From Oscillospiraceae bacterium (GTDB lineage: Bacteria > Bacillota > Clostridia > Oscillospirales > CAG-272), in contig SVRK01000003.1 of the NCBI GenBank assembly GCA_015064855.1, positions 158,594-222,593 on the forward strand: a stretch of 64,000 nucleotides of DNA. Reading direction: 5' to 3'. Made by a program: the position numbers and the translations under genes. A model generated the notes under the pieces. It saw only the letters and a program-made list of their open reading frames with translations. It had not been told where the DNA came from and searched no databases. This document shows positions 3,515 to 55,188 of the stretch, piece after piece (position 1 is the first letter of the stretch; each line of letters begins with the position of its first letter).

Positions 3515-4477
3515 ATGGATATTATTAAAGAACTTCGTGATTTTGGACTTGTTCCCGTAATAAAAATAACAAAGGTGGAAAATGCATTGCCACTTGCAAA
3601 GGCACTAGCTGCCGGTGGACTTAACTGTGCGGAAATTACATTCCGTACCGAATGTGCGGCTGAGGCAATCGCTGTAATCACAAAGGAAATGCCAGATATG
3701 CTTGTTGGCGCAGGAACAGTTTTAACACCCGAGCAAGCTGACAAGGCAATTGAGGCCGGCTCAAAGTTTATCGTTAGCCCTGGCTTTAACCCAAGAGTTG
3801 TTAAGCATTGCCTTGAAAAGGGTATACCTGTGCTTCCCGGCTGTGCAACACCTTCAGAGGTAGAGGCAGCTATGGAGCTTGGCTTAAAGGCAGTTAAATT
3901 TTTCCCAGCCGAGGCGGCAGGTGGACTTAATATGATTAAGTCTATGTCCGCACCTTATGGTGGCATTGAGTTTATGCCAACAGGTGGTATAAACGACGAA
4001 AATATGCTTGATTATCTCGCATTTGGCAAGATTATCGCATGTGGCGGCAGCTTTATGGTTAAGGACTCATTAATTGAGGCTGGCAACTTCGAGGAAATCA
4101 CTCGCTTAACAAAAAATGCAGTTATGAAAATGCTCGGCTTTAAGCTTGCTCACGTTGGCATCAACTGTGAAAACAAGGATGAGGCTACAAAGGGCGCAAA
4201 ATTGCTTTGCACACTCTTTGGTCTTGAATATAAGGAAGGAAATTCTTCTACATTTGTAGGCTCCGAATTTGAGCTTATGCACGAGCCATACCTTGGCAAA
4301 AACGGACACATTGCAATTTCAACAAACTTTGCATCCCGTGCAAAGGCTTATCTTGAAAAGCAAGGCATCGAGTTTAATGATGCAACCGCAAAGTATGATG
4401 CAAAGGGTAACTTGAAGGTTATATACTTGAAGGAAGAAATTTGCGGCTTTGCAATTCACCTAGTGGAGAAAAAATAA
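3515..4477 (+). CDS. eda: KDPG/KHG aldolase (Eda) with a C-terminal VOC/glyoxalase-fold domain
   Basis: The first ~205 aa match Eda (VPVIKI.., GLNCAEITFRT, KFFPAE, MPTGGI). The last ~110 aa (HVGINCEN..GHIAIST..GFAIHLVEK) look like a vicinal-oxygen-chelate domain. Confidence 0.8.
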   Translation: MDIIKELRDFGLVPVIKITKVENALPLAKALAAGGLNCAEITFRTECAAEAIAVITKEMPDMLVGAGTVLTPEQADKAIEAGSKFIVSPGFNPRVVKHCLEKGIPVLPGCATPSEVEAAMELGLKAVKFFPAEAAGGLNMIKSMSAPYGGIEFMPTGGINDENMLDYLAFGKIIACGGSFMVKDSLIEAGNFEEITRLTKNAVMKMLGFKLAHVGINCENKDEATKGAKLLCTLFGLEYKEGNSSTFVGSEFELMHEPYLGKNGHIAISTNFASRAKAYLEKQGIEFNDATAKYDAKGNLKVIYLKEEICGFAIHLVEKK

Positions 4478-9899: not shown

Positions 9900-10145
9900 T
9901 TAGTCAGCTAGTACTGTAACTTTGTCAGATGTGAGCTCTGTGATAGCGTCTACAATACCGAGAACCCAAGACAAACCGAAAACGAAAGAAACGATAGCAA
10001 CAACAAGTGTTACAGTGTTCTTTGTTTCGAGGTAGCGGAATACACGGTAAAGTGGACTCATAATACCACCAACGAGAAAGAAGATGAAGAACTTAAGAAC
10101 CTTGTTAAGACCTTCAATCTTAGCTGTGATTGATTCGTTAGCCAT
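9900..10145 (-). CDS. Small integral membrane protein (2 predicted TM helices), function unknown
   Basis: 81 aa with two hydrophobic spans (FFIFFLVGGIM.. and LVVAIVSFVFGLSWVLGIV). RBS AAGGAG 8 nt upstream and its own terminator. Confidence 0.7.
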   Translation of the reverse strand: MANESITAKIEGLNKVLKFFIFFLVGGIMSPLYRVFRYLETKNTVTLVVAIVSFVFGLSWVLGIVDAITELTSDKVTVLAD

Positions 10146-16862: not shown

Positions 16863-17999
16863 ATGTTCGAGGTAATAAAAAAGGACGGAAGAGCCAGACG
16901 CGCAAGACTTGAAACCGTTCACGGCACAATAGAAACTCCTGTTTTTATGAATGTTGGTACTTGTGCCGCAATCAAGGGTGGAGTTTCCACCACCGATTTA
17001 AAGGATTTAAAATGTCAGGTTGAGCTATCAAATACTTATCACCTACATTTGCGCCCGGGTGACAAATTAATTCACGATCTTGGCGGTATACATAAGTTTT
17101 TTAATTGGGATAAGCCGGTTTTAACCGATAGTGGTGGATTTCAGGTTTTCTCACTTTCTCAGCTTCGTAAAATAACCGAGGAGGGCGTTAAATTCGCTTC
17201 TCACATTGACGGCAAGCGTATATTTATGGGACCTGAGGAATCAATGCAAATTCAGTCGAATTTAGCTTCAACTATCGCTATGGCTTTTGACGAGTGTATT
17301 GAAAATCCGGCACCATATGAATATACAAAAAAGTCCTGCGACCGTACGGTTAGATGGCTTGTTAGATGTAAAAACGAAATGGCAAGACTTAATTCCTTGC
17401 CCGAAACCATAAACAAAAATCAAATGCTTTTCGGCATTAACCAAGGCAGTACGTATGAGGATTTACGTATTGAGCATATGAAACAAATCGCACATCTTGA
17501 CCTTGACGGATATGCCATCGGTGGTCTTGCGGTTGGTGAATCCACCGAGGAAATGTATCGTATAATTGATATAGTTGAGCCGTATATGCCCGAAAACAAG
17601 CCAAGATACCTAATGGGTGTTGGAACACCTTGTAATATTTTGGAGGCTGTTCACCGTGGTATTGACTTTTTTGACTGTGTAATGCCGTCAAGAAATGCAA
17701 GACACGGAAACCTCTTTACTTGGCATGGCAAAATGAATATAATGAACGAGAAATATCGTGACGACTCACGTCCAATTGACGAGAACTGCGGCTGCCCTGC
17801 CTGCCGTGATTATTCACGCGCGTATATTCGCCACTTAATAAAGGCAAAAGAGGCACTAGGTATGCGTTTGGCGGTTCTTCATAACCTTTATTTCTATAAT
17901 GATTTAATGGAAAAAATAAGGACGGCGCTTGACGGCGACTATTTTGAGAGCTTCTATCAAAAATATAGAAATATTCTTGGCGAACGCAGTCAAAATTAG
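16863..17999 (+). CDS. tgt: Queuine tRNA-ribosyltransferase (tRNA-guanine transglycosylase)
   Basis: TPVFMNVGT, LTDSGGFQV and the zinc site CGCPACRDYSRAYIRHL. ATG at 16863 (a TTG at 16860 is also possible). Confidence 0.95.
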   Translation: MFEVIKKDGRARRARLETVHGTIETPVFMNVGTCAAIKGGVSTTDLKDLKCQVELSNTYHLHLRPGDKLIHDLGGIHKFFNWDKPVLTDSGGFQVFSLSQLRKITEEGVKFASHIDGKRIFMGPEESMQIQSNLASTIAMAFDECIENPAPYEYTKKSCDRTVRWLVRCKNEMARLNSLPETINKNQMLFGINQGSTYEDLRIEHMKQIAHLDLDGYAIGGLAVGESTEEMYRIIDIVEPYMPENKPRYLMGVGTPCNILEAVHRGIDFFDCVMPSRNARHGNLFTWHGKMNIMNEKYRDDSRPIDENCGCPACRDYSRAYIRHLIKAKEALGMRLAVLHNLYFYNDLMEKIRTALDGDYFESFYQKYRNILGERSQN

Positions 18000-18028
18000 A
18001 CACATGACAAAATTTTTTGGAGGATTTT

Positions 18029-18865
18029 ATGTTTATGAATAATGATTTTATGCTTTATCCTAATTTTAAGATGAAGGCGCTGACATTTAGCTATGATGAT
18101 GGCGTTAAAGAGGATAGAGCATTCGTTGCACTTTTAAATAAATACGGATTAAAAGGCACCTTCAACCTAAATAGTGGCTTGATGGCTAAAGAAAAAAGGA
18201 TTGACGACAAGATTTGCCCGGAGGAAATAGCTGATTTATATAAAGGACACGAGGTTGCCGTTCACACAGTTCACCACCCATTCCTTGAAAAAATGCCCGA
18301 AAGCGTTATTGCAACAGAGGTGCTTGACGACAGACGAAACCTTGAAAAATATGTTGATTATCCTGTTCGTGGTATGGCATATCCATTTGGCACTTATGAT
18401 GAGCGCGTAATTAATGTTTTAAAGGCTGTTGGCATTAAATATTCAAGAACAACCGAGGTTCACCATAACTATATTTTGCCAACTAACTGGCTCAAAATGC
18501 CATCAACCTGTCACCATGCAGATGGTCGCCTTTTCGAGCTTGCTGAAAAATTTGTAAATAGCGAGCCAAAGAAAGAAAGCCGCTTCACAACTCATGGATG
18601 GCTATTCTACGTATGGGGACATACCTACGAATTCAGAACCAAAGAGGATTGGGACAGAATTGAGGAATTTTTCAAGCTTGTTTCAATGAGAGATGATGTT
18701 TGGTATGCAACCAATATCGAAATTTACGATTATATTGAGGCTTATAGAGCCCTCGAATATTCAGTAGACCTAACGAAGGTTTATAACCCAACAGGTATAG
18801 ATGTTTATCTTATTCACAATGAGAAAAATTATAAAATTCCAGCCGGACAAGTGGTTAAATTCTAA
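18029..18865 (+). CDS. Polysaccharide deacetylase (CE4) family protein, no signal peptide
   Basis: FSYDDG.. and HTVHHP motifs of the NodB homology domain. I chose the ATG at 18029, 5 nt after GGAGG, over the TTG at 18017. Confidence 0.75.
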   Translation: MFMNNDFMLYPNFKMKALTFSYDDGVKEDRAFVALLNKYGLKGTFNLNSGLMAKEKRIDDKICPEEIADLYKGHEVAVHTVHHPFLEKMPESVIATEVLDDRRNLEKYVDYPVRGMAYPFGTYDERVINVLKAVGIKYSRTTEVHHNYILPTNWLKMPSTCHHADGRLFELAEKFVNSEPKKESRFTTHGWLFYVWGHTYEFRTKEDWDRIEEFFKLVSMRDDVWYATNIEIYDYIEAYRALEYSVDLTKVYNPTGIDVYLIHNEKNYKIPAGQVVKF

Positions 18866-18898
18866 TAAAAAAGGAACGGAAATCCGTTCCTTTTTTTA
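18866..18898. terminator. Bidirectional terminator between convergent genes
   Basis: AAAAAGGAACGG-AAAT-CCGTTCCTTTTTTT. Confidence 0.85.
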
Positions 18899-19753
18899 TT
18901 AGATTGTGCCAGTTACTATTAAAGTGCTGGTTCCGGGAGTTATTGAAATTACGCCAGTTATCGGGTCTTGAGTATAGGTTGCTGCAGGAACTGTAATGTT
19001 TGATGGAACTGTTTCAAAAAATCCTGTTGTTTGATTGTAGTTATATTCTGTACCTTCTGACCAAGGTGTACCATTAAAGATAACCTGTACGTTTGTTAAA
19101 ATTGGGTCAAATAGGTCGGTAATAATTGCATTGTCGGTTGCCACTAAAGGTGTATTACCTGTGTTTTGGATTAAGAAGGTGTAGGTTACAGTTTCGCCCT
19201 CGGCAACAGGAACAGGACTGATTGATTTAGTGATAGATAGATTTGGACGAGTTTCAGCATTAACTGTTTCTTCAACAGAAACAGGAGTAACGCCCATACC
19301 GCTTATTGCCGCTTGATTCGTAATTTCTCCGTCAATGCCTAAAGGAGCAAAGCCGTTTGTAGAAACCTCGTAAACAAGAATTGCATTACCGTTTGCAGGA
19401 ACAGTAATTCCACTTACCGTAAGTGAATTTGCAGTAGTTGTAACTATTGGACTTGGCTGCAAAACGCCATTAACATAATAGCGAAGAGTTCCATCTGTAT
19501 AGTCGAGAGGAGTTAGTGTACCCGTGCCAAAGGTGTAAGTGCCTAGGTTGTCGGTTATTGTTAAATTATTAAAGGCAGAAGAGCCTGAATTTAATATGCT
19601 AACTATATAGGTTATATTGTCGTCTTGTCCGTAGGTTGCATTTATCGCAGTCTTGGTTGCTGAAAGCACTTCTAAGATTTCGCCAACAGCAACATTTGAA
19701 TTCGTTACTGTGTTTCCGTAGGACAAGGTAGCTTGATTAGTAAATTGTGCCAT
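18899..19753 (-). CDS. DUF11 (conserved repeat domain) protein, leaderless
   Basis: 284 aa, T/N/V/G-rich beta-type sequence. The segment LSITKSISPVPVAEGETVTYTFLIQNTGNTPL is a typical DUF11/TIGR01451 repeat start. No signal peptide or TM span. RBS GAAAGGAA upstream. Confidence 0.7.
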   Translation of the reverse strand: MAQFTNQATLSYGNTVTNSNVAVGEILEVLSATKTAINATYGQDDNITYIVSILNSGSSAFNNLTITDNLGTYTFGTGTLTPLDYTDGTLRYYVNGVLQPSPIVTTTANSLTVSGITVPANGNAILVYEVSTNGFAPLGIDGEITNQAAISGMGVTPVSVEETVNAETRPNLSITKSISPVPVAEGETVTYTFLIQNTGNTPLVATDNAIITDLFDPILTNVQVIFNGTPWSEGTEYNYNQTTGFFETVPSNITVPAATYTQDPITGVISITPGTSTLIVTGTI

Positions 19754-46560: not shown

Positions 46561-47295
46561 ATGACAAGAAAAAATCGAATAATTTTAATTTCCACATTAA
46601 GCACAATGGCGATTATTTTGTTATTGGCTATTGCTGGAATTCTAATATATTTAAATACATATTATCACGCTGATAGAGAGGCGGTTGATGCGTTTTTGGA
46701 GCAAAGTCAAGTAGAAACAGTCGAAATAGATAGTGGCATAGTCGCATTTGTACCAAGAATGGCGAACGCGGGATTTATTTTTTACCCTGGTGGAAAGGTC
46801 GAGGCGGAAGCATACTATCCTTTAATGGCGGAATGTGCGAAAAACGGAGTTTTATCCGTAATTGTTGAAATGCCCTTTAATTTAGCTGTATTTAATATTA
46901 ATGGTGCAGATGGGATAAAAGAAGAGTTTCCAGAGGTTGAAAATTGGTACGTGGGTGGTCACTCCCTCGGTGGTTCAATGGCGGCAACTTATCTTGATAA
47001 TCACAGAGAGGACTATGAAGGGCTGATTCTTTTAGGCTCATATTCGACCATTGATTTTAGGGATAGCGACATTCGTGCTTTGTCGATTTATGGTGAAAAT
47101 GATAGGGTAATGAATAGAGAAAAATACGATGAGTGTAAAGCGAATTTATCGACACTTTCCGAGCACGAAATAGTAGGAGGCAACCACGCCGGCTTTGGTA
47201 TGTATGGAAGGCAGGACGGCGACGGAATAGCCTTAATTACAAGCGAGGAACAAATAAAAAAAGCAGCTTCAATAATTATTGAGTTTGTAGAATAA
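46561..47295 (+). CDS. Membrane-anchored alpha/beta hydrolase
   Basis: N-terminal TM helix and the nucleophile elbow GGHSLGG. 244 aa. Confidence 0.75.
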   Translation: MTRKNRIILISTLSTMAIILLLAIAGILIYLNTYYHADREAVDAFLEQSQVETVEIDSGIVAFVPRMANAGFIFYPGGKVEAEAYYPLMAECAKNGVLSVIVEMPFNLAVFNINGADGIKEEFPEVENWYVGGHSLGGSMAATYLDNHREDYEGLILLGSYSTIDFRDSDIRALSIYGENDRVMNREKYDECKANLSTLSEHEIVGGNHAGFGMYGRQDGDGIALITSEEQIKKAASIIIEFVE

Positions 47296-47310: not shown

Positions 47311-47352
47311 AAAAAATCAGAGCGGACAATCAAATGTCCGCTCTGATTTCGT
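47311..47352. terminator. Bidirectional terminator
   Basis: ATCAGAGCGGAC-AATCAAAT-GTCCGCTCTGAT is flanked by an A-run and a T-run. Confidence 0.85.
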
Positions 47353-47369
47353 TTATCATAAAATAAATT

Positions 47370-47783
47370 TCATTTCATCAGCTCGTCGGTAAGGCGAATA
47401 ATTTCAGGTGCTATCTTCTTGCGCTTTTTCTTTAGAATAATAGTGTATATTGGATATGCAAGACTAGCAATAGCACCGCCAAGAATGCCGATAACTATTC
47501 CTATTGTCATTGCCATATTTTGAAAATCGCCGAGAATTTTTGAAAGCTCTGTCATAATAAGGCTCATTCCAAAGCCGAGAATAAGAGTGCCTACTATACC
47601 CAACGCTAAAGAAACTATTTGTGCAGCCTGTGTGGAGCTGGCATCAAGACGACGCAAACGAGCCATTTTATCCTCTGGTTCTGTCGAAGGTGTATATTTT
47701 TCGCGAATTCGTTTTATTTCTAACTGTTCCTTTGCGGAGTAGGTGTAAGTGAATCCGCCATTTCCTTGGTTATTGTTTTCCAT
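47370..47783 (-). CDS. Small 2-TM membrane protein, paralog A of a three-member family
   Basis: 137 aa. Cytoplasmic N-region FTYTYSAKEQLEIKRIREKY..LRRLD, a TM hairpin, then KKKRKKIAPEIIRLTDEL. Overlaps the upstream gene by 14 nt. Confidence 0.75.
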   Translation of the reverse strand: MENNNQGNGGFTYTYSAKEQLEIKRIREKYTPSTEPEDKMARLRRLDASSTQAAQIVSLALGIVGTLILGFGMSLIMTELSKILGDFQNMAMTIGIVIGILGGAIASLAYPIYTIILKKKRKKIAPEIIRLTDELMK

Positions 47784-48666
47784 TTTTAACCTCTGTTTTT
47801 AATTTTTTCAGTTTTTTCGTGCCTACGACTATCATATAAATTGCCGTAGCAACGATTAGTACGGAAATAGCGCCGCCCGTTGCACTGAGCATCAATTTCC
47901 TTGTAGTAGCAGTCATCGTTTCATCGCCGAAGGTCGTGAGCATCGTGGATTCAAGTGTCAGCATGGACACGAGTGCCGCTGTCAAGCTGATTGTTTTTGA
48001 TGCCGAGTAGACAGGACTGTTATACTTTTTATATTTTATGACATTGATAATTGCCGTTGTGAGCGCCGTAAAGGTGTACGCTGCCATCGCAATTGCTGTG
48101 ATCATGTGATGCTCGAAGGTTCTGTTCCAATAAACCATAAAGAAGATTATTAGCGCAAGCGCTAAGTTCATCACAAGGAATACGATACCGCAGGCACGGT
48201 ATTTTTTTAGCTCGGTTTGCATTCTCTCACCAGGAGCATATCTCGTTGTGTGACGAGCCAAAAAGAATCGCGTCACACTAAGGCAAACATAGTATGCGCC
48301 GAGCGAGTAGAACCAGAAGGTGTGGTGGTAAAATCCAAGCCATAGCTGAAAGATTCCGTACAAGGCATTCCAAGCAAGCGAGACGTAGAGTGACACGTTT
48401 ACGCGCAGACGAGCATCCTCCTGCCATCGTCGCGCATACTTGTTTTCGTTCTTGAACGTCTTGAAAAATTTGATTAAATACGGAATTTTGAAGCACCAAA
48501 CTGTTAACGTGTACGATGCTATCACGTAAGATACAATAGCGATCGGAGACTCCGTTCCAACAAACACCATTGAACCGATAAGCAAAACTGCTGCAATTGG
48601 AACAAGGATGATCATAATCGCGATATGCGGAAACAAAAGAGCTTTACCTATTTTCTTCCAACTCAT
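47770..48666 (-). CDS. Polytopic membrane protein of unknown function, co-operonic with the HK/RR
   Basis: ~298 aa from MSWKKIGKALLF with 6-8 hydrophobic helices. The ATG at 48666 overlaps the end of the HK gene by 23 nt. Confidence 0.7.
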   Translation of the reverse strand: MSWKKIGKALLFPHIAIMIILVPIAAVLLIGSMVFVGTESPIAIVSYVIASYTLTVWCFKIPYLIKFFKTFKNENKYARRWQEDARLRVNVSLYVSLAWNALYGIFQLWLGFYHHTFWFYSLGAYYVCLSVTRFFLARHTTRYAPGERMQTELKKYRACGIVFLVMNLALALIIFFMVYWNRTFEHHMITAIAMAAYTFTALTTAIINVIKYKKYNSPVYSASKTISLTAALVSMLTLESTMLTTFGDETMTATTRKLMLSATGGAISVLIVATAIYMIVVGTKKLKKLKTEVKNGKQ

Positions 48667-49735
48667 TTTTATTTCTCCTGATTTTAACGGTGAAGGTAGA
48701 GCCGACGCCGACTTCACTTTCCACAGCAATTTCCCCTTGCATAATATCAACTACGCGTCTGACAAGAGCAAGACCGAGACCATTTCCTTGCGTAGCACGC
48801 GACGTGTCGCCTTGATAGAATTTTTCAAAGATGTGTGCACCTACCTCGCTGCTTATACCACAACCTGTGTCCGATATTTTAACAATAGCGTGCTTTTCAT
48901 CTGATGCTAATGAAAGAGATACCTTTCCACCCTCATCCGTGAACTTTAAGGCGTTAGAGAAAAGATTGCTCCAAACAAGGGAAAGAAGCTCTGCATCGGC
49001 AGAAACAAACACGTTCTCGGCAATATCGGTTTCAATCTCAATATTCTTTCTTTCCCACGTGCTTTCATACTGCAAAAGGCTTTCGCAAAGCTGTTCTCCG
49101 AGATCAAAGGTGGTGGGATTCGGGTAAATCTGCTGATTTTCAAGTCGGTTGAGCTTTAATATATTCGTCATCATACCCGCAAGACGGCGCGAGGCATCGG
49201 TGATTGCCTTTGCATATTCAAGTCGCTTTTCTTCGGACAGGTTGTTGGTCTGCAAAAGCGTTCCGTAGTTCTGCATCACGGCAAGCGGAGTTTTCATCTC
49301 GTGAGACACGTTGGCTATAAAATCAGTGCGTAAGGTTTCTACACCGGATAATTCCTCTGCCATAGCATTGAGTGATTCACCTATTTGATTAAAGCCATCC
49401 ATACCTGAACCGCGCATATGCTTAACACGGGCAGAAAAATTTCCGTTCGTCATTTTTTTAGCTGCGTTTGTGATCATTTTTACAGGTCTTTCCACCATGA
49501 TTTTTCGACGAATGAAATCGGCGGTTTTAAAAAGAACGGTAATAATTACAACGTTGAGAAAGGTGATCTTTGCCGCTTCAGCGATATTTTCGGAAGTATA
49601 GGTAAGCCCCATTTCTTTGGATAGTACGTTGAGGAAGAGCATCATACAGCAGGAGACCACAAAGCCAACCGTCAAAAAGAACAAAAGAAAACTGCTGAAC
49701 TCCCGAAGCACTCTATGGAATGCCGGCTTTTTCAT
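48644..49735 (-). CDS. Sensor histidine kinase (2 TM, HAMP, HisKA, HATPase_c)
   Basis: H-box SHEMKTPLAV, N-box NLFSNALKF, G-boxes DTGCGI and GNGLGLAL. Confidence 0.92.
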   Translation of the reverse strand: MKKPAFHRVLREFSSFLLFFLTVGFVVSCCMMLFLNVLSKEMGLTYTSENIAEAAKITFLNVVIITVLFKTADFIRRKIMVERPVKMITNAAKKMTNGNFSARVKHMRGSGMDGFNQIGESLNAMAEELSGVETLRTDFIANVSHEMKTPLAVMQNYGTLLQTNNLSEEKRLEYAKAITDASRRLAGMMTNILKLNRLENQQIYPNPTTFDLGEQLCESLLQYESTWERKNIEIETDIAENVFVSADAELLSLVWSNLFSNALKFTDEGGKVSLSLASDEKHAIVKISDTGCGISSEVGAHIFEKFYQGDTSRATQGNGLGLALVRRVVDIMQGEIAVESEVGVGSTFTVKIRRNKNELEENR

Positions 49736-50403
49736 TTGATCACCGCCTTGTATCCTAGACCATGGACGGTCTGTATTTCAAATGAGTCGCAATCGCATAG
49801 CTTTGAGCGAAGCTTAGTCATATATACGTCGACTGTTCTTGTGCTTGATTGTGTGTCTACGTCCCAAAATTCATCCATTAGCTGAGTGCGGGTGAATGTC
49901 TTTTTGGGATAAGATAACAGCTTATATAGAATATCAAACTCTCGTGCCGTTAAGGAAATTTCTTCTCCATTTAAAGATGCGCTTCTTTCGTCTGCATCCA
50001 TAACGAAATTGCCAACCTCAAGTCGGCGGCTAGAGGCAATTTTAGAGCGTCGAAGAAGTGCACCAATTCTAAGGAAAAGCTCATCAAGATCAATAGGCTT
50101 AGTCATATAGTCGTCAATCCCAATGCGATATCCTCTTTGCTTTGATGCAAAGTCGTCGCGCGCAGTCATAAACAGTATAGGAATGTCATTGTTTATAGAG
50201 CGCACAGTTTTCGCAAATTCAAAGCCATCAATTTTGGGCATCATTATATCCGAAACGATAAGATCGAAAACGGTTTTATACATTTCGTCGTAGGCACTTT
50301 CCGCATCAAGACATCCAATCGCTTCGTATCCGCTGCTGTTCAAAAACGAGCAAACGGAGCGATTTAAATCTCTGTCATCCTCTACAACTAAAATTTTGAA
50401 CAT
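49732..50403 (-). CDS. OmpR/PhoB-family response regulator
   Basis: Receiver domain (ILVVEDD, ..DLIVSDIMMPKIDG) plus a winged-helix C-domain (..VDVYMTKLRSKL..GLGYK). Confidence 0.93.
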   Translation of the reverse strand: MFKILVVEDDRDLNRSVCSFLNSSGYEAIGCLDAESAYDEMYKTVFDLIVSDIMMPKIDGFEFAKTVRSINNDIPILFMTARDDFASKQRGYRIGIDDYMTKPIDLDELFLRIGALLRRSKIASSRRLEVGNFVMDADERSASLNGEEISLTAREFDILYKLLSYPKKTFTRTQLMDEFWDVDTQSSTRTVDVYMTKLRSKLCDCDSFEIQTVHGLGYKAVIK

Positions 50404-50444
50404 TTTTCATCCCTCCAAGGGTAGATTTTGTTTTTTGCATCTCT

Positions 50445-50474
50445 ATTATAACATGGAAATGTTAAAGTTTTGTT
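50445..50474 (-). promoter_or_regulatory. Promoter of the RR-HK operon with an AACAAAAC box at -35
   Basis: Minus strand reads AACAAAAC, 16 nt, TATAAT (with TGt extended -10). Confidence 0.45.
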
Positions 50475-50498
50475 TACATTTTCCCTTTTTCAAAAAAT

Positions 50499-50535
50499 TA
50501 TAAAAAATAAGGCAACGCAAAATAGCGTTGCCTAA
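50499..50535 (-). terminator. Rho-independent terminator
   Basis: Minus strand: AGGCAACGC-TATTTT-GCGTTGCCT followed by TATTTTTTA. Confidence 0.8.
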
Positions 50536-50538
50536 ATT

Positions 50539-51024
50539 TTATTCTGTTATGGAAACAGTGTATTGACCGTCAAGCCCCTTCATCTTTAAAAATTCATTAA
50601 ATTCTTTTGTTAAAGATTCGGCACTGCAAACAATATTGGAACTGGAAGAGGAGGCATACGCATTTGCGCGAGCAACCCCTGCTTGCGCTTGTGCCTGAGC
50701 CCTTGCAATTTGTTTTGCGGTGTCGGCAGGCGCATTTTTTGCTCCATTTTTTATGTTATTAACTACGAGATGGAATTTTGCCTTGATGCCTTTTGTGTGA
50801 AGAAACTCGACAAATTCCTTGTTTTCCTCTGCCGATTTCGTTTTTACTGCCTCAAAGCTTGCCACATCCTTTTCGTGTTGCTTGCGAGCAGATTCTCCCA
50901 TATTGTTAAATGCGAGTTTGAATTTAGCTATTATTCCCTTCGTATGCAAAAATTCGCTGAATTGATTGTTAAGCTCAAGCATTTCTTGTTCTATTTCTTG
51001 TTCTGTTTTGAATTGATTTTCCAT
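50539..51024 (-). CDS. Soluble helical protein with three internal EF(L/V)xxKG(I/L) repeats, unknown function
   Basis: Repeats are NNQFSEFLHTKGIIAKFKLAFNN, NKEFVEFLHTKGIKAKFHLVVNN and TKEFNEFLKMKGLDGQYTVSI. I prefer the ATG at 51024 (GGAG RBS 9 nt upstream). The track ORF starts at 51039. Confidence 0.65.
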   Translation of the reverse strand: MENQFKTEQEIEQEMLELNNQFSEFLHTKGIIAKFKLAFNNMGESARKQHEKDVASFEAVKTKSAEENKEFVEFLHTKGIKAKFHLVVNNIKNGAKNAPADTAKQIARAQAQAQAGVARANAYASSSSSNIVCSAESLTKEFNEFLKMKGLDGQYTVSITE

Positions 51025-51040
51025 TTTAAAAATCTCCATT

Positions 51041-51406
51041 TTAGTCGTTAGTTATATTTTCACTTAATGTAATAATTTTGTCAGCGTATTTTTTCTTGCG
51101 CTTGCCGAGAATTCCTTTATATATCGGATAATTAACACTTGCCATTGCCATACCTACAATTCCAATAATTATGCCTGGAACAAGTGGCGAGCCTATACCG
51201 ATAGTAGCACCGATATCAGTCATAACAAGGCTCATTCCGGCACCCATAACGAGCGCTGAAATACCGCCAAATACATAAGCAAAAATGTTAGCGGGACGCT
51301 TCACCTTGGAGTCTAGCTTGCGAAGAACATCAAGCTCTGACGGCTGCTTTTCCATATACTGTGTGCGAATTTTTTGTGCCATAAATTGTTGGTCTTTTTT
51401 GTTCAT
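51041..51406 (-). CDS. Small 2-TM membrane protein, paralog B
   Basis: 121 aa with the same architecture as 47370-47783 and 51508-51888 (..LRKLD.., TM hairpin, YPIYKGILGKRKKKYADKIITLSENI). Confidence 0.72.
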   Translation of the reverse strand: MNKKDQQFMAQKIRTQYMEKQPSELDVLRKLDSKVKRPANIFAYVFGGISALVMGAGMSLVMTDIGATIGIGSPLVPGIIIGIVGMAMASVNYPIYKGILGKRKKKYADKIITLSENITND

Positions 51407-51507
51407 AATAATTACCTCTCATTTTTTGTATTGTTTTGTTTTGTGACTTTATCATATCAAGCGTTTGTTTTTGAATTTTTTAGAAAATGTTTTTGTTTTG
51501 TTAATCT

Positions 51508-51888
51508 TTAAGAATTTTGAGAATTTATTATTTCTTCAGATAGGCGAATAATCTCTGGCGTTAGCTCGACTTTTCTTTTTTTCGCTATCCATCTATATAG
51601 TGGATAGGCAGGTATCATCAAAAGAGTACCTATAATCATAAATAGAGCAGTGAGCCACCAGCCTCCTGCAAATACCTCAAGAAAAAAGCACATTCCGATG
51701 CCAAAGATAAGCAGGCCCACAATTCCAAGACAAAGCGCTTCGATTGTTCCTGCCGTTTGAACGCGCAGATCAAGTCGTTTTAATTTTTCGAGCTTGTTTT
51801 CTTCTTCGGGCACATATTTTTTTCTTATGTTTTCGACCTCTTTGTTTCTTGTTACCGAATAATTGTAGCTGAAAGTGTTGTTTTCCAT
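51508..51888 (-). CDS. Small 2-TM membrane protein, paralog C
   Basis: 126 aa: FSYNYSVTRNKEVENIRKKY..LKRLD, a TM hairpin, then YPLYRWIAKKRKVELTPEIIRLSEEI. Confidence 0.72.
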   Translation of the reverse strand: MENNTFSYNYSVTRNKEVENIRKKYVPEEENKLEKLKRLDLRVQTAGTIEALCLGIVGLLIFGIGMCFFLEVFAGGWWLTALFMIIGTLLMIPAYPLYRWIAKKRKVELTPEIIRLSEEIINSQNS

Positions 51889-51923
51889 GATACTCCTGTT
51901 TCTTTGTTTTTCATTGTGTCATT

Positions 51924-51953
51924 ATTGTACGAAACCGATTTTTGAGTTTTGTT
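51924..51953 (-). promoter_or_regulatory. Promoter of paralog C (and probably B plus the repeat protein) with an AACAAAAC box at -35
   Basis: Minus strand reads AACAAAAC, 16 nt, TACAAT. The spacing is the same as at the RR-HK promoter. Confidence 0.4.
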
Positions 51954-51988
51954 GGCGATTTGTTTCTAAAATGTTATAAAATGAATTT

Positions 51989-53554
51989 TTATAGCATCGG
52001 TGCAAAAATTCTGACTACCGAGCGGATAAAACGGGTGAAGAGCCCTGTTTTTAACATATCGGGATTTATTTCTATGGATTTTGCCATAGTTTCATCAATA
52101 TCACTTTTTAAATCCTTTATGGACTCACAGCGATACATCCAAACGCCGTTTTCAAAGTGGTGCACAAGACTTCGGTAGTCAAGATTGATCGTGCCGATCA
52201 TAGCATACTCGTCATCTGCAATATAGCTTTTAGCGTGAATGAATCCAGGCTTATATTCGTAAATTTTCACGCCTGATTTCATCAAACGGTGATAAAAGCT
52301 TCTCGTCATACTGAAGACGAGCTTTTTATCGGGAATATGCGGAACAATGATACGCACATCCACGCCACGCAAGGCAGCATTTTCAATGCTTTGACACAAG
52401 TCATTATCAATGATAAGATATGGCGTTGTTATGTACATATAGCGCGTGGCGGAGTTTAACATATTTTGAATAACGCTCTTTCCGACTCTGCGCTTGTAAA
52501 GTGGATATGGACCGTCACCAAACGGAATTACATATCCTTCAGCAGATATATCGTTTTGCTTTGGATATAATTCGTAATTTGTTTCGGGCAGCTTCTTTAC
52601 GTTTATGCCGTAATCTGTAAGGAACAGTCTTGTAAGCTCCCATACCGCCTCTCCCTCAAGGCGAATAGCAGTATCCTTCCAATGTCCAAAGCGTTCTACT
52701 TTATTTATATATTCATCGGCAATATTTACACCGCCTGTATATCCTATTTTGCCGTCAATTACGCATATTTTGCGGTGGCTTCTGTTGTTGAATTCACCGT
52801 CTGCTTGTCCGCGTAAACGTGAGAACGGTTTGGCTTCAATATCAAATTTACCGAGCTGCTTGTGATAGTCGCCGGGGAGCGTACTCATACAACCTATATC
52901 GTCATATAATACTCGAACGTTAACTCCCAATGTGGCCTTGCGCTTTAAGATGTCGAGTATTGAGTTCCAAAACACTCCTTCTTCTATGATAAAGTATTCC
53001 ATAAATATAAACTTCTCTGCTTTTTCAAGATCGGTAAGCATTGCCTTCCACATATCCTCGCCAAGTGGATAATAGGTTTGTGTCGTGTTCTTAAACACTC
53101 GAGCACTCGATATGGAGCATAGCATTCTTGCCTGAGCTGCGGCGTGAGCGTTCTCGCAATCCAATTTGTCAAGGATTTCTTCATGCGTTTTCTCGTACTG
53201 ATATTTTTTTAACTCGTCAAGACGGCGAATGAATTTCTTTTGGAGCTTTCGCGAGTAAAAAAGAAAGTATAACATAAATCCGGCAATTGGTAAGATGAGA
53301 ACAAACAATAGCCATGGAACTTTATAATCAGGGTTGTCGTCTGAAGCAATAATTTTTATTACGCAGAAAAACTCCGTAACAAAAGCAGCAATATAAAAAT
53401 AGGGAATATAATAGCAGCACGCAACAACGATACTAATGATGGCAAGTATTTCAAGAATTGTAATAAAAACCGCTAGAATATAACGGAAGGGAATGTAGTT
53501 GTATTCCCGCTCTATCGTTTTTTCACCGGTTGTAACCTTATATTTCTTTTTCAC
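51989..53554 (-). CDS. cls: Cardiolipin synthase (two PLD/HKD domains)
   Basis: HKD motifs HRKICVIDGKIGYTGGVNI and IHAKSYIADDEYAMIGTINLD, plus N-terminal TM helices. I prefer the GTG at 53554 (GAGGTG RBS) over the TTG at 53572. Confidence 0.9.
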   Translation of the reverse strand: MKKKYKVTTGEKTIEREYNYIPFRYILAVFITILEILAIISIVVACCYYIPYFYIAAFVTEFFCVIKIIASDDNPDYKVPWLLFVLILPIAGFMLYFLFYSRKLQKKFIRRLDELKKYQYEKTHEEILDKLDCENAHAAAQARMLCSISSARVFKNTTQTYYPLGEDMWKAMLTDLEKAEKFIFMEYFIIEEGVFWNSILDILKRKATLGVNVRVLYDDIGCMSTLPGDYHKQLGKFDIEAKPFSRLRGQADGEFNNRSHRKICVIDGKIGYTGGVNIADEYINKVERFGHWKDTAIRLEGEAVWELTRLFLTDYGINVKKLPETNYELYPKQNDISAEGYVIPFGDGPYPLYKRRVGKSVIQNMLNSATRYMYITTPYLIIDNDLCQSIENAALRGVDVRIIVPHIPDKKLVFSMTRSFYHRLMKSGVKIYEYKPGFIHAKSYIADDEYAMIGTINLDYRSLVHHFENGVWMYRCESIKDLKSDIDETMAKSIEINPDMLKTGLFTRFIRSVVRIFAPML

Positions 53555-53651
53555 AATACACCTCGAAAACAAATATGTTAATTATACGCTATAATTGTAG
53601 AAAAGCATTGTTTTTGAAAAATTTTTATTTTGTTTAAGTTTTGTTAATGTT

Positions 53652-53687
53652 AAAAAATAAAAGGGATAGGCATTCTGCCTATCCCTA
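53652..53687 (-). terminator. Rho-independent terminator
   Basis: Minus strand: AGGGATAGGCA-GAA-TGCCTATCCCT followed by TTTATTTTTT. Confidence 0.85.
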
Positions 53688-53706: not shown

Positions 53707-55188
53707 TCAAAATGAGAGCATACCATATGCCTGACCATTATAATTCCATAAAAAATCTTCAGCGGTTTTATAGAAGGTAACTGTAATTTTGTCCCTGTTA
53801 AATCCAAAGCACATAGATACATTCCCTAAATATCTGTCGATAATTTGGGAAAAGAGCATTATTTTGTTGTCGCATAGCCAAGCACCGGATGTTGCACAGT
53901 CGTATTTTGAACCATCGGTTGTACGCTCTCCACCAACATCGCTCGAATAGCCAAGCTCGGGGAACTTGCCAAAATAGTTTTCATTTAATTTAAAAGGCAA
54001 CTCCATCATTCCGTTTCCGTTTTCGTAATATAGCGTTCCACCATCTTCATTAAATTTAAAGGTTAAATTTTTCAAGCCAATATCATTTTTTTCAAAAATG
54101 TATTTTCTGCCATCAATTTTTTCTTGCCAAGGCGAAAAAGCTTCTCCCTTTATAGCAAAAAGTGAAAGGTTATTTGTTGAATTTAACAGATCATTGTATG
54201 CATCATTATCCTCATTTAGAGGCTTATTTTCAAGGTTTTCAACGATAATGTCAAAGAAATATGAAAGAATAATCTCACTTGCAAAGGAAGAACCTTGATT
54301 ATCCGCCGTGCATACGAAAATAAGGTCGTAATCTGGCAAGCAAATTGTCAGTTGATCTCCCATTCCAACAAAAGCAAAGCCATTTTTCTCTGTTCGCCAA
54401 ATTTGATATCCGTAGCCGTGAGAGAGCACGTCATCAAATGCTGTTTCTTGGTTATCAACAAGCTTTGAGGTCGCTGTTTTTAAGTAGGCCTCGCTTAAAA
54501 TGCGCTTGCCGTCCCATTCACCATAGTTCATAATAAATCTGCCGAACGAAAGCATATCGCGTGAGGTGCAGAGAAGTGCAGAATCTCCCCAGCTTTCGCC
54601 TGTTGGAGTTTTTAAAATGGTTGCATTTTTAAATGTACCAAGATGTGAGAAAATTTTTTCATTTAAATAATCAAAAAGTGGCTTGCCAGCTAGCTTTTCA
54701 ACAAGGCAACACAAAACCTGTGAGCCTTGGCTGTCATATTCCCAAATAGTGCCGGGGGATCTTAAATTTTGGGGTCTTTTGTTGAAGTATACCTTGCATC
54801 TGTCTCTGCATTCATGGTCAAACCATCCTTCGCCATATCCGACGGTTGTCATTTTCAGCATGTCCTCAATCGTCTGCATTTTAAGTGATTCATTAAGGGG
54901 AGTGTCTGTTTTTTCTGGAAAATAATCGACTATTTTGTCCTTAAGCGAAATTTTGCCCTCATCAATTAATAGCCCTATGGCAATAGACACAAAGCTTTTT
55001 GTTTGGGAGTACATTCTATGTAGAAAGCTTTTATCAAACGGAGTCCAATAAAATTCGCCGAAAATATCATATCCACGGCATAAAATAACGCTGTGCATAC
55101 GCATTTTTCTTTTTTCAAGCTTTGAAATAAATTCCTTTACGTATTTTGATTTTATACCGATTGATTCGGGGGTAACGTTTCTAAACAT
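53707..55188 (-). CDS. Serine hydrolase, beta-lactamase (class C/PBP4*-like) fold with an extra C-terminal domain
   Basis: SxxK motif (YSQTKSF) near aa 60. 493 aa. No signal peptide. Confidence 0.75.
   Translation of the reverse strand: MFRNVTPESIGIKSKYVKEFISKLEKRKMRMHSVILCRGYDIFGEFYWTPFDKSFLHRMYSQTKSFVSIAIGLLIDEGKISLKDKIVDYFPEKTDTPLNESLKMQTIEDMLKMTTVGYGEGWFDHECRDRCKVYFNKRPQNLRSPGTIWEYDSQGSQVLCCLVEKLAGKPLFDYLNEKIFSHLGTFKNATILKTPTGESWGDSALLCTSRDMLSFGRFIMNYGEWDGKRILSEAYLKTATSKLVDNQETAFDDVLSHGYGYQIWRTEKNGFAFVGMGDQLTICLPDYDLIFVCTADNQGSSFASEIILSYFFDIIVENLENKPLNEDNDAYNDLLNSTNNLSLFAIKGEAFSPWQEKIDGRKYIFEKNDIGLKNLTFKFNEDGGTLYYENGNGMMELPFKLNENYFGKFPELGYSSDVGGERTTDGSKYDCATSGAWLCDNKIMLFSQIIDRYLGNVSMCFGFNRDKITVTFYKTAEDFLWNYNGQAYGMLSF

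Follow-up and report, generated by a model that had tools for sequence, protein, structure and literature searches.

A putative autoregulated membrane-stress regulon of hairpin proteins, a helical repeat protein, and a cardiolipin synthase in an Oscillospiraceae bacterium

Eight consecutive minus-strand genes lie in one part of the window, the 64-kb stretch of Oscillospiraceae DNA (from a gut or rumen Clostridia genome) analyzed here, as described in an initial annotation; gene calling gave the same eight on each of two independent metagenome contigs. Four of them, encoding a response regulator (RR, 49732-50403), a histidine kinase (HK, 48644-49735), a polytopic membrane protein (47770-48666), and a small membrane protein (parA, 47370-47783), overlap successively by 4, 23, and 14 nt, in agreement with the overlaps noted earlier. 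Upstream lie cls (51989-53554), parC (51508-51888), parB (51041-51406), and a repeat-protein gene (50539-51024). The two terminators previously placed at 50499-50535 and 47311-47352 correspond to terminator-like hairpins: an intrinsic one at 50510-50533 (minus strand), at the end of the repeat-protein gene, and a bidirectional one at 47314-47349, common to the end of the RR-HK-polytopic-parA operon and a convergent alpha/beta-hydrolase gene. With four box-bearing promoters, preceding cls, parC, parB, and RR, the layout differs from the two or three transcription units first estimated.

Recognizable functions were confined to cls and the two-component system, as first thought. The cls gene has a GTG start and encodes a ClsA-type cardiolipin synthase of 521 aa (TIGR04265, 334.7 bits, cutoff 290; PLDc_N and PLDc_2 domains), with two predicted N-terminal transmembrane (TM) helices and two HKD motifs, HRKICVID and HAKSYIAD, in its translation. 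RR (223 aa) belongs to the OmpR/PhoB family (Response_reg and Trans_reg_C domains) and is unusually conserved, with a mean identity of 86% across loci. HK (363 aa) contains HAMP, HisKA, and HATPase_c domains; its predicted topology comprises two TM helices joined by an outer loop no longer than 23 aa, with no extracellular domain, and by sequence it is an intramembrane-sensing kinase. The other five proteins gave nothing above the curated cutoffs in Pfam or NCBIfam and no match in PADLOC or PDB families, although their families are large; the hairpin family alone comprises ∼1,830 clusters at 50% identity.

ParA (137 aa), ParB (121 aa), and ParC (126 aa) are each predicted to form a two-TM hairpin, N-in/C-in, with an outer turn of 5 to 9 aa. 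The suggestion that they are paralogues was confirmed by BLASTP (ParC versus ParA, 3e-28; ParB versus ParA, 7e-23; ParB versus ParC, 3e-15). In ParA, TM1 and the two cytoplasmic ends, N- and C-terminal, are the best-conserved segments across loci. Of the top 150 representative clusters, 51 are of the ParC type. The repeat protein (161 aa) has no TM segment and consists of an x98 core with three copies of an EF(L)xTKG(I/L) motif. Its internal repeat is genuine (copy 1 versus copy 2, 5e-10; copy 1 versus copy 3, 0.002). It matches the x98 protein of locus L059 (BLASTP, 3e-9), and on sequence similarity it is an expanded member of the short, charged, helical x98 family (82 to 161 aa), whose gene lies directly 3' of parB in other genomes. 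A proposed amphipathic membrane-binding helix in the helical protein did not score above shuffled controls, an observation that we count against a regulon. Aligned with E. coli PspA by hhalign, x98 gave a probability of 0.2%.

The polytopic protein (298 aa, ∼8 helices) has 5,485 homologues and no family match in the searches described above. It may serve the kinase as a co-sensor or accessory protein; since structure prediction reached a pLDDT of only 57 and 53, this role is drawn solely from gene order, frame overlap, and the natural polytopic-hairpin fusions seen in P0374, P0417, and L039. Alternatively, the polytopic protein and ParA could be outputs, either effectors or transport-like, with the kinase sensing alone and the operon merely co-expressing regulators and effectors. 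Consistent with such a role, ParA is paralogous to ParB and ParC, whose genes follow output promoters, and loci L065 and L083 lack the polytopic protein while retaining RR-HK-hairpin. We nevertheless consider it unlikely, given the frame overlaps, the near-invariant adjacency to the kinase, and the conservation of the polytopic protein, which equals that of the kinase and is highest in helices 5 to 7. Intramembrane-sensing kinases, moreover, generally rely on accessory membrane proteins.

At most loci, RR is preceded by a promoter whose -35 position coincides with a direct-repeat box, CAAACAAAAC-TTTAACATTT. Its (T/C)(T/A)AACA half-sites, repeated with an 11-bp period, are the presumed regulator site, and related boxes, single or two in tandem, precede cls, parC, and the parB-repeat protein unit. 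All four promoters in the window are on the minus strand. That of RR (50445-50476) has the box TAAACAAAACTTTAACATTT (50476-50457) at -35 and an extended -10, TGTTATAAT (50453-50445); the box has no mismatches to the pattern and is the best matrix match in the window (33 bits). With a loose anchor pattern, the box together with TGnTATAAT was found upstream of RR in 61 loci, including this genome. The parB promoter (51451-51504) consists of box 1, TTAACAAAACAAAAACATTT (51504-51485), again without mismatches, box 2, TTCAAAAACAAAC (51475-51463), and the -10 TATGAT (51456-51451), an architecture kept in ∼40 loci. It can be aligned without gaps, and in the same register, with the cls promoter (53594-53647), which has box 1, TTAACAAAACTTAAACAAAA (53647-53628), at two mismatches to the consensus, box 2, TTCAAAAACAATG (53618-53606), and the -10 TACAAT (53599-53594); TTTAACAAAA-N-AAACA is kept upstream of cls in L022, L035, L038, L048, and L051. 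In the parC promoter (51924-51977), AACA occurs three times at 11-bp intervals (ATAACATTTTAGAAACAAATCGCCAACAAAAC), ahead of the -10 TACAAT (51929-51924). Its site in the window does not match the strict consensus pattern, which we count against a regulon; the architecture recurs in L007, L014, L019, L022, L024, L028, and L051, ahead of the first hairpin gene that follows cls.

Upstream regions were scored with a matrix trained on RR sites only, with controls as the percentile reference. By this measure the regions that exceeded the 99th percentile of the controls were 62% of those preceding parB, 55% of those preceding cls, and 25% of those preceding parC; 83% of the parC regions exceeded the 95th. 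Across the 64-kb window, perfect pattern matches occurred only at the RR and parB promoters, and these were also the only sites at or above 8 bits with the RR-trained matrix (parB, 10 bits); the latter result we count against a regulon. The functional link that had been drawn from synteny and shared promoter motifs is supported by the box being kept at orthologous RR, parB, parC, and cls promoters. We take the box to resemble the B. subtilis PhoP repeat, TT(A/T/C)ACA, and the best NCBIfam matches are PnpS and PhoR for the kinase, and the RprY and then the PhoB models for the regulator. A PhoPR-like nutritional (phosphate) system whose regulon includes membrane genes by chance is nonetheless very unlikely: the scores fall far under the cutoffs (207 versus 400 and 172 versus 270), a Pfam domain search found no PAS domain in the kinase, pst and pho genes were found at none of the loci, and the genes that make up the regulon encode exporters, lipid enzymes, and membrane proteins.

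Conservation of the locus was surveyed in 80 species-representative genomes. Because loci were collected via ParA homology, the near-perfect synteny of the core (RR in 70/71, HK in 73/74, and the polytopic protein in 76/77 loci, where the contig allows) describes ParA orthologues rather than the hairpin family at large; hairpins of a distant subfamily are likewise found 3' of an RR-HK pair, without a polytopic protein. In 37 of 43 loci the 5 kb upstream of RR include a ParB- or ParC-type paralogue, and in 27 of 43 an x98 protein. Linkage of the small-protein family to a two-component system holds across the 80 species genomes; cls is linked in a minority of loci (7/38), usually at the upstream end, which we count against a regulon. 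A hairpin paralogue lies directly 3' of cls in 9 of 12 cls-bearing loci. The sparse linkage of cls, and the separate promoter of each unit, would also fit a coincidental adjacency of cls-parC, parB-repeat, and the TCS operon as unrelated neighbors. This reading is already disfavored, and we regard it as very unlikely, since all four promoters have boxes in common that are phylogenetically conserved, gene order is kept across 80 species, and paralogy ties the units together. None of the three outcomes that the initial annotation had named as contradicting it (lack of synteny, lack of co-regulation, and assignment of the unknown proteins to characterized families with unrelated roles) was found.

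Cassettes of varying content fill the slot that separates the upstream hairpin/helical genes from RR; they comprise two ABC-2 exporter pairs, PlsY, or a glycosyltransferase accompanied by two acyltransferases. The last of these, a GT8 cassette with PlsC-like and CrtO-like acyltransferases, carries the box in L005. These lipid enzymes lend independent support to the earlier idea of lipid remodeling. The exporters, two ATPase/ABC-2 permease pairs co-transcribed behind parB-x98, occur in 13 of 43 loci; the ATPases best match the lantibiotic-protection ABC family (203 bits), and also PmtA and PmtC. They are absent from the window, a further point counted against a regulon.

The exporters raise the question of whether the locus is instead a module dedicated to resistance against bacteriocins or lantibiotics, like LanRK/LanFEG or Pmt, in which exporters would be the effectors and hairpins small immunity proteins, the window holding a reduced version that lost its exporters. 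The ATPase score falls short of the family cutoff (310), however, the permeases matched no NCBIfam model, most loci lack exporters, no bacteriocin biosynthesis genes were found near the locus, and lipid enzymes fill the same slot in other genomes; we judge this explanation improbable. The likeness to Bce (BceRS-AB), LanRK/LanFEG, and PmtABCD lies in an OmpR-type regulator and an intramembrane-sensing kinase that drive exporters against membrane-active peptides, and relatives of the locus mirror the F-E-F-E gene order of PmtABCD. On the other hand, the kinase here carries a HAMP domain, BceB is an FtsX-type permease whereas those of the relatives are of ABC-2 type (PF12730), and the ATPases, as noted, fall below the lantibiotic-protection cutoff.

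We consider it somewhat more probable than an even chance that the region forms a single regulon, in which an autoregulated two-component system governs a response to membrane or cell-envelope stress. In its best reading this regulon would remodel lipids under membrane stress or attack by antimicrobial peptides, with a signal and a biochemistry that we infer. The kinase, the polytopic protein, and ParA would jointly sense a perturbation inside the membrane, the latter two as input or feedback devices of the kinase; likely signals would be membrane-active peptides, ionophores, lipid II-binding compounds, or altered lipid packing. Phosphorylated RR would then activate its own operon and the output promoters. 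Cardiolipin synthase would supply more cardiolipin, and the ParB and ParC hairpins and the soluble helical repeat protein may stabilize or organize the membrane, in the manner of a small anchor paired with a helical effector. Relatives would use these promoters to express two ABC-2 exporter pairs, PlsY, or a glycolipid-type cassette. The proposed circuit, which recurs in at least 80 species, appears to be previously undescribed; its logic resembles that of Lia, Bce, and EdsRS-ClsT, but it belongs to none of them.

Such logic has experimental precedents. In B. anthracis, EdsRS responds to envelope damage by inducing itself, an ABC-2 type transporter, and clsT, a dedicated cardiolipin synthase gene, and the extra cardiolipin restores barrier function (PMC7157781). 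EdsRS-EdsAB/BAS1661-1663-ClsT parallels the envelope-responsive circuit proposed here; the Eds genes described there are the two-component system, the ABC transporter, and clsT, with no mention in those parts of a polytopic, hairpin, or helical counterpart (PMC7157781). EdsRS is NarL-type (HisKA_3 and GerE) whereas the system here is OmpR-type (HisKA and Trans_reg_C), and cls is here an optional cassette, unlike in Eds. Also comparable, by description, are C. difficile DraRS and HexRK, which govern a glycolipid that daptomycin and bacitracin resistance requires, and B. subtilis YrkPQ, as clostridial or Firmicute systems that set resistance to these two drugs through small regulons of lipid and membrane-biogenesis genes; the portions consulted mention no hairpin or polytopic partners (PMC10128005, PMC10601699). 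The HexSDF output is a glycolipid, as against cls, PlsY, or GT8-acyltransferases here.

The resemblance to Lia/Psp-type systems proposed initially stands as a matter of logic, as does the absence of canonical components. In LiaFSR/LiaIH and Psp, as in the circuit proposed here, a kinase lacking any extracellular domain is paired with an accessory protein of the membrane, autoregulates, and induces a small two-TM anchor together with a soluble helical protein. Membership, however, does not stand, since the defining LiaF, PspA/IM30, and PspC domains were not found at the locus; the Lia regulator is, moreover, NarL-type, and the helical protein here is short, at 82 to 161 aa. S. aureus SaePQRS, compared by description, comprises an intramembrane-sensing kinase, an OmpR-type regulator, and two kinase-modulating accessory proteins in one autoregulated operon. 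SaeP and SaeQ differ from the candidate accessory proteins here in size and operon position, and the Sae binding site, GTTAAN6GTTAA, is, like the box at this locus, a direct repeat with an 11-bp period.

The module consists of eight consecutive minus-strand genes, as the initial annotation had described, and our ORF list agrees with the genes called independently on two metagenome contigs bearing the identical locus. Read in the direction of transcription, these are cls (51989-53554, 521 aa), the hairpin genes parC (51508-51888, 126 aa) and parB (51041-51406, 121 aa), a repeat-protein gene (50539-51024, 161 aa), and the genes for a response regulator (RR; 49732-50403, 223 aa), a histidine kinase (HK; 48644-49735, 363 aa), a polytopic membrane protein (47770-48666, 298 aa), and a third hairpin protein, parA (47370-47783, 137 aa). 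The last four reading frames overlap, by 4 nt (RR/HK), 23 nt (HK/polytopic), and 14 nt (polytopic/parA). Terminator hairpins lie 3' of the repeat-protein gene (50510-50533) and at the end of the operon (47314-47349), the latter being bidirectional and shared with a convergent alpha/beta hydrolase gene (46561-47295, plus strand). A beta-lactamase-family serine hydrolase gene (53707-55188, minus strand) flanks the other side, with a terminator (53662-53686) between it and cls. The regulator box, a direct repeat of AACA-type half-sites presumed to be bound by RR, was sought at both flanking genes and is absent from them. Judged from its sequence, the locus is a putative envelope-stress and detoxification module, controlled by a two-component system (TCS) and made of three uncharacterized protein families.

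Recognizable functions had been claimed only for cls and the TCS, and domain searches bear this out. Cls scored 334.7 bits against the equivalog model for ClsA-type cardiolipin synthases (TIGR04265, cutoff 290); it has PLDc_2 in two stretches together with PLDc_N, two HKD motifs (HRKICVID and HAKSYIAD), and an N-terminal membrane anchor of two predicted transmembrane (TM) segments. RR has the receiver (PF00072, 8e-25) and Trans_reg_C (PF00486, 3.7e-22) domains of the OmpR/PhoB family, and HK is of the matching TCS type, with HisKA (PF00512, 1.7e-13) and HATPase_c (PF02518, 1.9e-27) in the order HAMP-HisKA-HATPase_c. A hydropathy scan places the TM helices of HK at residues 9-27 and 51-69, so that the outer loop is no longer than 23 aa, with HAMP directly after. 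Intramembrane sensing is here taken to mean an input of two TM helices with a linker under ~25 aa and without an extracytoplasmic domain; HK appears to have this layout, as judged by a crude hydropathy method. Intramembrane-sensing kinases generally depend on partner membrane proteins, and two membrane partners are encoded within the single conserved TCS operon.

The five other proteins, previously left nameless, stayed below every curated cutoff of Pfam and NCBIfam and had no match in PADLOC. ParA, ParB, and ParC are true paralogues, as had been proposed (BLASTP E values of 3e-28, 7e-23, and 3e-15). The hydropathy scan predicts an N-in/C-in hairpin with an outer turn of 5-9 residues; the TM helices are Gly-rich and the cytoplasmic ends lysine-rich. 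When the three paralogues served as query in an exhaustive profile search (E ≤ 0.001), about 1,830 clusters were returned at 50% identity, and the best 150 of these split evenly into ParA-like (51), ParB-like (48), and ParC-like (51) sequences, so the three are old subfamilies. Homologous clusters at 90% identity number 6,738 for ParA, 5,485 for the polytopic protein, and 491 for the repeat protein; wherever the sources give these homologues a name, it is "hypothetical protein." Searches by tblastn against plasmids gave zero matches, Rfam returned only sub-threshold chance matches, and a single distant hairpin used as a metagenome query found two loci only. Profile searches of the PDB returned nothing for the polytopic protein or for x98, the family of the repeat protein, and for the hairpin gave colicin A as the sole, nonsignificant match (E = 0.05). 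One hairpin homologue (P0367, 516 aa) joins a hairpin domain (residues 1-135) to a truncated D-Ala-D-Ala carboxypeptidase (Peptidase_S11 and PBP5_C); this fusion may be real and hint at a cell-wall link, or may be an artefact of assembly or gene calling.

The repeat protein contains an EF(L)xTKG(I/L) motif three times and zero TM segments predicted from hydropathy. By sequence comparison it is a divergent, repeat-expanded member of x98, a family of short, charged, helical proteins whose consensus starts MGIKAFFKKAFxDMKESAKAQHEVDKA. For x98 and the repeat protein, we considered the N-terminal helix as an amphipathic anchor and found this unsupported, its hydrophobic moment being no greater than that of shuffled sequences. 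Eight or nine helices are predicted for the polytopic protein, and its AlphaFold2 models fell below usable confidence (pLDDT of 57 from the single sequence and 53 from a 20-sequence alignment). Natural polytopic-hairpin fusions occur in two representative homologues (P0374 and P0417) and at one locus (L039). In ParA, conservation peaks at TM1 and the cytoplasmic ends, and in the polytopic protein at helices 5-7, which suggests cytoplasmic and intramembrane contacts and speaks against extracellular ligand binding.

Gene order was compared across species by scanning one genome per species, which gave 80 loci recruited by ParA similarity and annotated by phmmer with the window proteins as queries; the figures hold for ParA orthologues, and each denominator counts the loci whose contig extends far enough. 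All 80 are metagenome-assembled genomes, assigned to Oscillospiraceae, Lachnospiraceae, Acutalibacteraceae, Ruminococcus, Clostridium, or Faecousia or labeled just Clostridia or Eubacteriales, and many come from ruminant gut samples. The polytopic gene lies immediately 5' of parA in 76/77 loci, HK is present in 73/74, and RR is present in 70/71. Within 5 kb upstream of RR, a second hairpin paralogue is found in 37 of 43 loci and an x98 gene (82-105 aa, charged, helical) in 27 of 43, directly after the upstream hairpin gene where seen. ABC-2 permeases occur in 13/43 loci and cls, up to 7 kb upstream, in 7/38. We conclude that the conserved unit is RR-HK-polytopic-ParA plus parB-x98, and that cls is one among several interchangeable lipid cassettes. 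Thus the proposed synteny of the small-protein family with the TCS stands, but that with cls is confined to a minority of loci; regulated lipid remodeling, earlier argued from the linkage of cls, persists as a theme of lipid enzymes, with cls itself an optional cassette. A hairpin paralogue lies directly 3' of cls in 9 of the 12 cls-bearing loci. One locus (L066) has a second cls with a ParA-like hairpin gene directly 3' of it; the pair (16907-19036) lies 6.5 kb beyond the TCS operon on its downstream side, so that cls-hairpin pairing occurs away from the regulator genes too. A distant hairpin gene on a high-GC metagenome contig (P0498) follows a like RR-HK pair without a polytopic gene, and the same arrangement is seen at L065.

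The cassettes between parB-x98 and RR have phospholipid or glycolipid enzymes and exporters as their recurring theme. One type has two ATPase/ABC2_membrane_4 permease pairs, with permeases of ~270 aa; a second is PlsY (L059); and a third combines a GT8 glycosyltransferase with PlsC-like and CrtO-like acyltransferases (L005 and L027). In the window, no ABC genes of the cassette kind were found. The closest family of the cassette ATPases is the lantibiotic-protection ABC model TIGR03740, whose cutoff of 309.75 lies above the 203 and 200 bits scored by the two ATPases at L022; the permeases beside these have no NCBIfam match. LanFEG is defined by an ATPase over that cutoff and MutE/EpiE or MutG-type permeases, and the cassettes may be related to it. 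The cassette ATPases also resemble PmtA and PmtC. We considered producer immunity, rank it low, and retain an envelope-stress module with optional exporters. The ABC genes appear to be part of the parB operon, because only a stem-loop, and no promoter box, divides them from x98. This GC-rich, conserved stem-loop (AAGCGAGGCG...GCCTCGCTT, without a clear T-run) follows x98 and precedes the first ABC ATPase gene in L022 (about 3700-3750), L024, L038, L059, and others; acting as an attenuator or as a site of RNA processing, it might set the small-protein:exporter ratio. Ahead of the GT8-acyltransferase cassette lies a leader of ~170 nt (L005, 4560-4770; L027, 1500-1740), with the parts CGCCTTTTT..ATTCTAC.AAAC.GAGAA in common and no Rfam match; the L005 leader carries a regulator-type box, TAAACAAAAGTAAACATTT.

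The RR site was found with a loose anchor pattern in 61 loci, this genome counted. It is a direct repeat with an 11-bp period at the position of the -35 element, within an RR promoter consensus of ACG-n-AAACAAAACTTTAACATTT-nnG-TG-n-TATAAT. Across loci, the parB promoter reads TTAACAAAAC-GCAAACATTT, a second A-rich box ending AAAAACAAAC, and then the -10 element; the cls promoter reads TTTAACAAAA-N-AAACA; and the promoter of the first hairpin gene 3' of cls has the AACA repeat three times, like the window's parC promoter. A matrix built on the RR sites alone was applied to the other upstream regions, with percentiles set by controls. The control 99th percentile was exceeded by 62% of parB, 55% of cls, and 25% of parC upstream regions, and the 95th by 83% of those of parC, which upholds the earlier report of shared promoter motifs. 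In the window, perfect consensus matches occur solely at RR (50457-50476) and parB (51485-51504). At cls the site differs from the consensus pattern by 2 mismatches, and over the stretch from box 1 through -10 the cls promoter gives an ungapped alignment with that of parB. Four promoters in the module are predicted to bear the box, so that of the two or three transcription units first proposed, the terminators stand but the count does not. The mean identity of RR, 86% across loci whose ParA proteins are 51-73% identical, fits a near-invariant site. Taken together, these results are good comparative evidence for what is probably one autoregulated regulon. Its putative output promoters, which bear the box, lie 5' of cls, of the hairpin paralogues and the helical protein, and in other genomes of exporters and lipid enzymes.

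A resemblance to Lia- and Psp-type circuits, suggested earlier, holds insofar as a small anchor is paired with a helical effector; it does not extend to membership, as the defining domains of both systems are missing. LiaFSR/LiaIH is defined by the accessory protein LiaF and by LiaH, a PspA/IM30 protein, and has a NarL-type LiaR and a HisKA_3 LiaS, whereas the module has Trans_reg_C and HisKA. In Psp, PspA/IM30 is the effector and its membrane partners are of the PspB or PspC type; no PF04012 or PF04024 match was obtained. In agreement with the stated absence of canonical LiaF, LiaI/H, and PspA, neither the five unnamed proteins nor 34 x98 homologues contain a PspA_IM30 or LiaF-type domain. 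We rejected x98 as a PspA homologue (hhalign probability of 0.2%, no Pfam match). The sole Psp-related signal comes from 4/52 polytopic homologues, L040 4843-5727 among them, which match the Rv2743c family of Pfam below threshold over two TM helices (best E value of 0.005; 17 bits, where the cutoff is 27.7). In mycobacteria, Rv2743c is the membrane partner of the PspA-like system; the match is kept only as a lead. Bce modules have BceAB beside the TCS, with an FtsX-type BceB permease bearing a large extracellular loop; this assignment fails because such permeases are absent, the window being without ABC genes and the relatives' permeases being ABC2_membrane_4.

PhoPR/PhoBR calls for a PhoR kinase with a PAS domain, scores over the equivalog cutoffs, and a pst/pho regulon, and the module departs from it on all three counts. 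HK scores 207 bits against PnpS (cutoff 400) and 182 against PhoR (334), and RR scores 172 and 161 against PhoB models (270 and 296; all NCBIfam); Pfam finds no PAS domain in HK, and no pho genes were found at the loci. We rank a Pho regulon low and favor an envelope-stress circuit. Closest in logic is EdsRS-ClsT of Bacillus anthracis, in which, according to the portion of the source drawn on here, envelope damage leads EdsRS to induce itself, an ABC-2 transporter, and clsT (PMC7157781). The two are nonhomologous: as given in that portion, EdsRS is NarL-type (HisKA_3 and GerE), with EdsAB and an ABC-2-clsT operon, whereas the module is OmpR-type, and the same portion mentions no counterpart of the three families (PMC7157781). 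Small TCS regulons of lipid genes likewise set daptomycin and bacitracin resistance in Clostridioides difficile (DraRS/HexRK) and Bacillus subtilis (YrkPQ), as far as the excerpted accounts describe them (PMC10128005, PMC10601699).

Overall, the initial description and interpretation hold, with refinements to the conserved unit, the cls cassette, and the promoter count. In the mechanism we propose, HK would read the membrane state jointly with the polytopic protein and ParA, and RR would activate its own promoter in class II fashion, plus the outputs. These would be more cardiolipin, together with hairpin and helical proteins that stabilize or organize the bilayer; exporters, where carried, would expel the offending compound. 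It is possible, though we think it rather doubtful, that the loci represent an unrecognized, widespread membrane-stress class in gut and rumen Clostridia, with an HK fed by 8-helix and hairpin proteins, hairpin-helical outputs that replace Lia/Psp without homology, and interchangeable lipid cassettes (cls, PlsY, glycolipid acyltransferases). If that were true, the architecture of the sensor would be new, as would three protein families. None of the hairpin, polytopic, and helical families has a name, and each is linked to the same highly conserved regulator and DNA box in many uncultured gut and rumen Clostridia. Should the circuit sense membrane damage and remodel lipids, it would give these anaerobes a main route of tolerance to bacteriocins, host peptides, bile, or feed ionophores, and it would bring a new kind of accessory input device for kinases without a sensor domain. 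The conserved box offers an immediate handle on the regulon in any carrier genome. In the window, the regulator matrix picks out a lone extra site of at least 8 bits, at 10005-10024 on the minus strand (9.8 bits, 3 mismatches), a score about equal to chance expectation.
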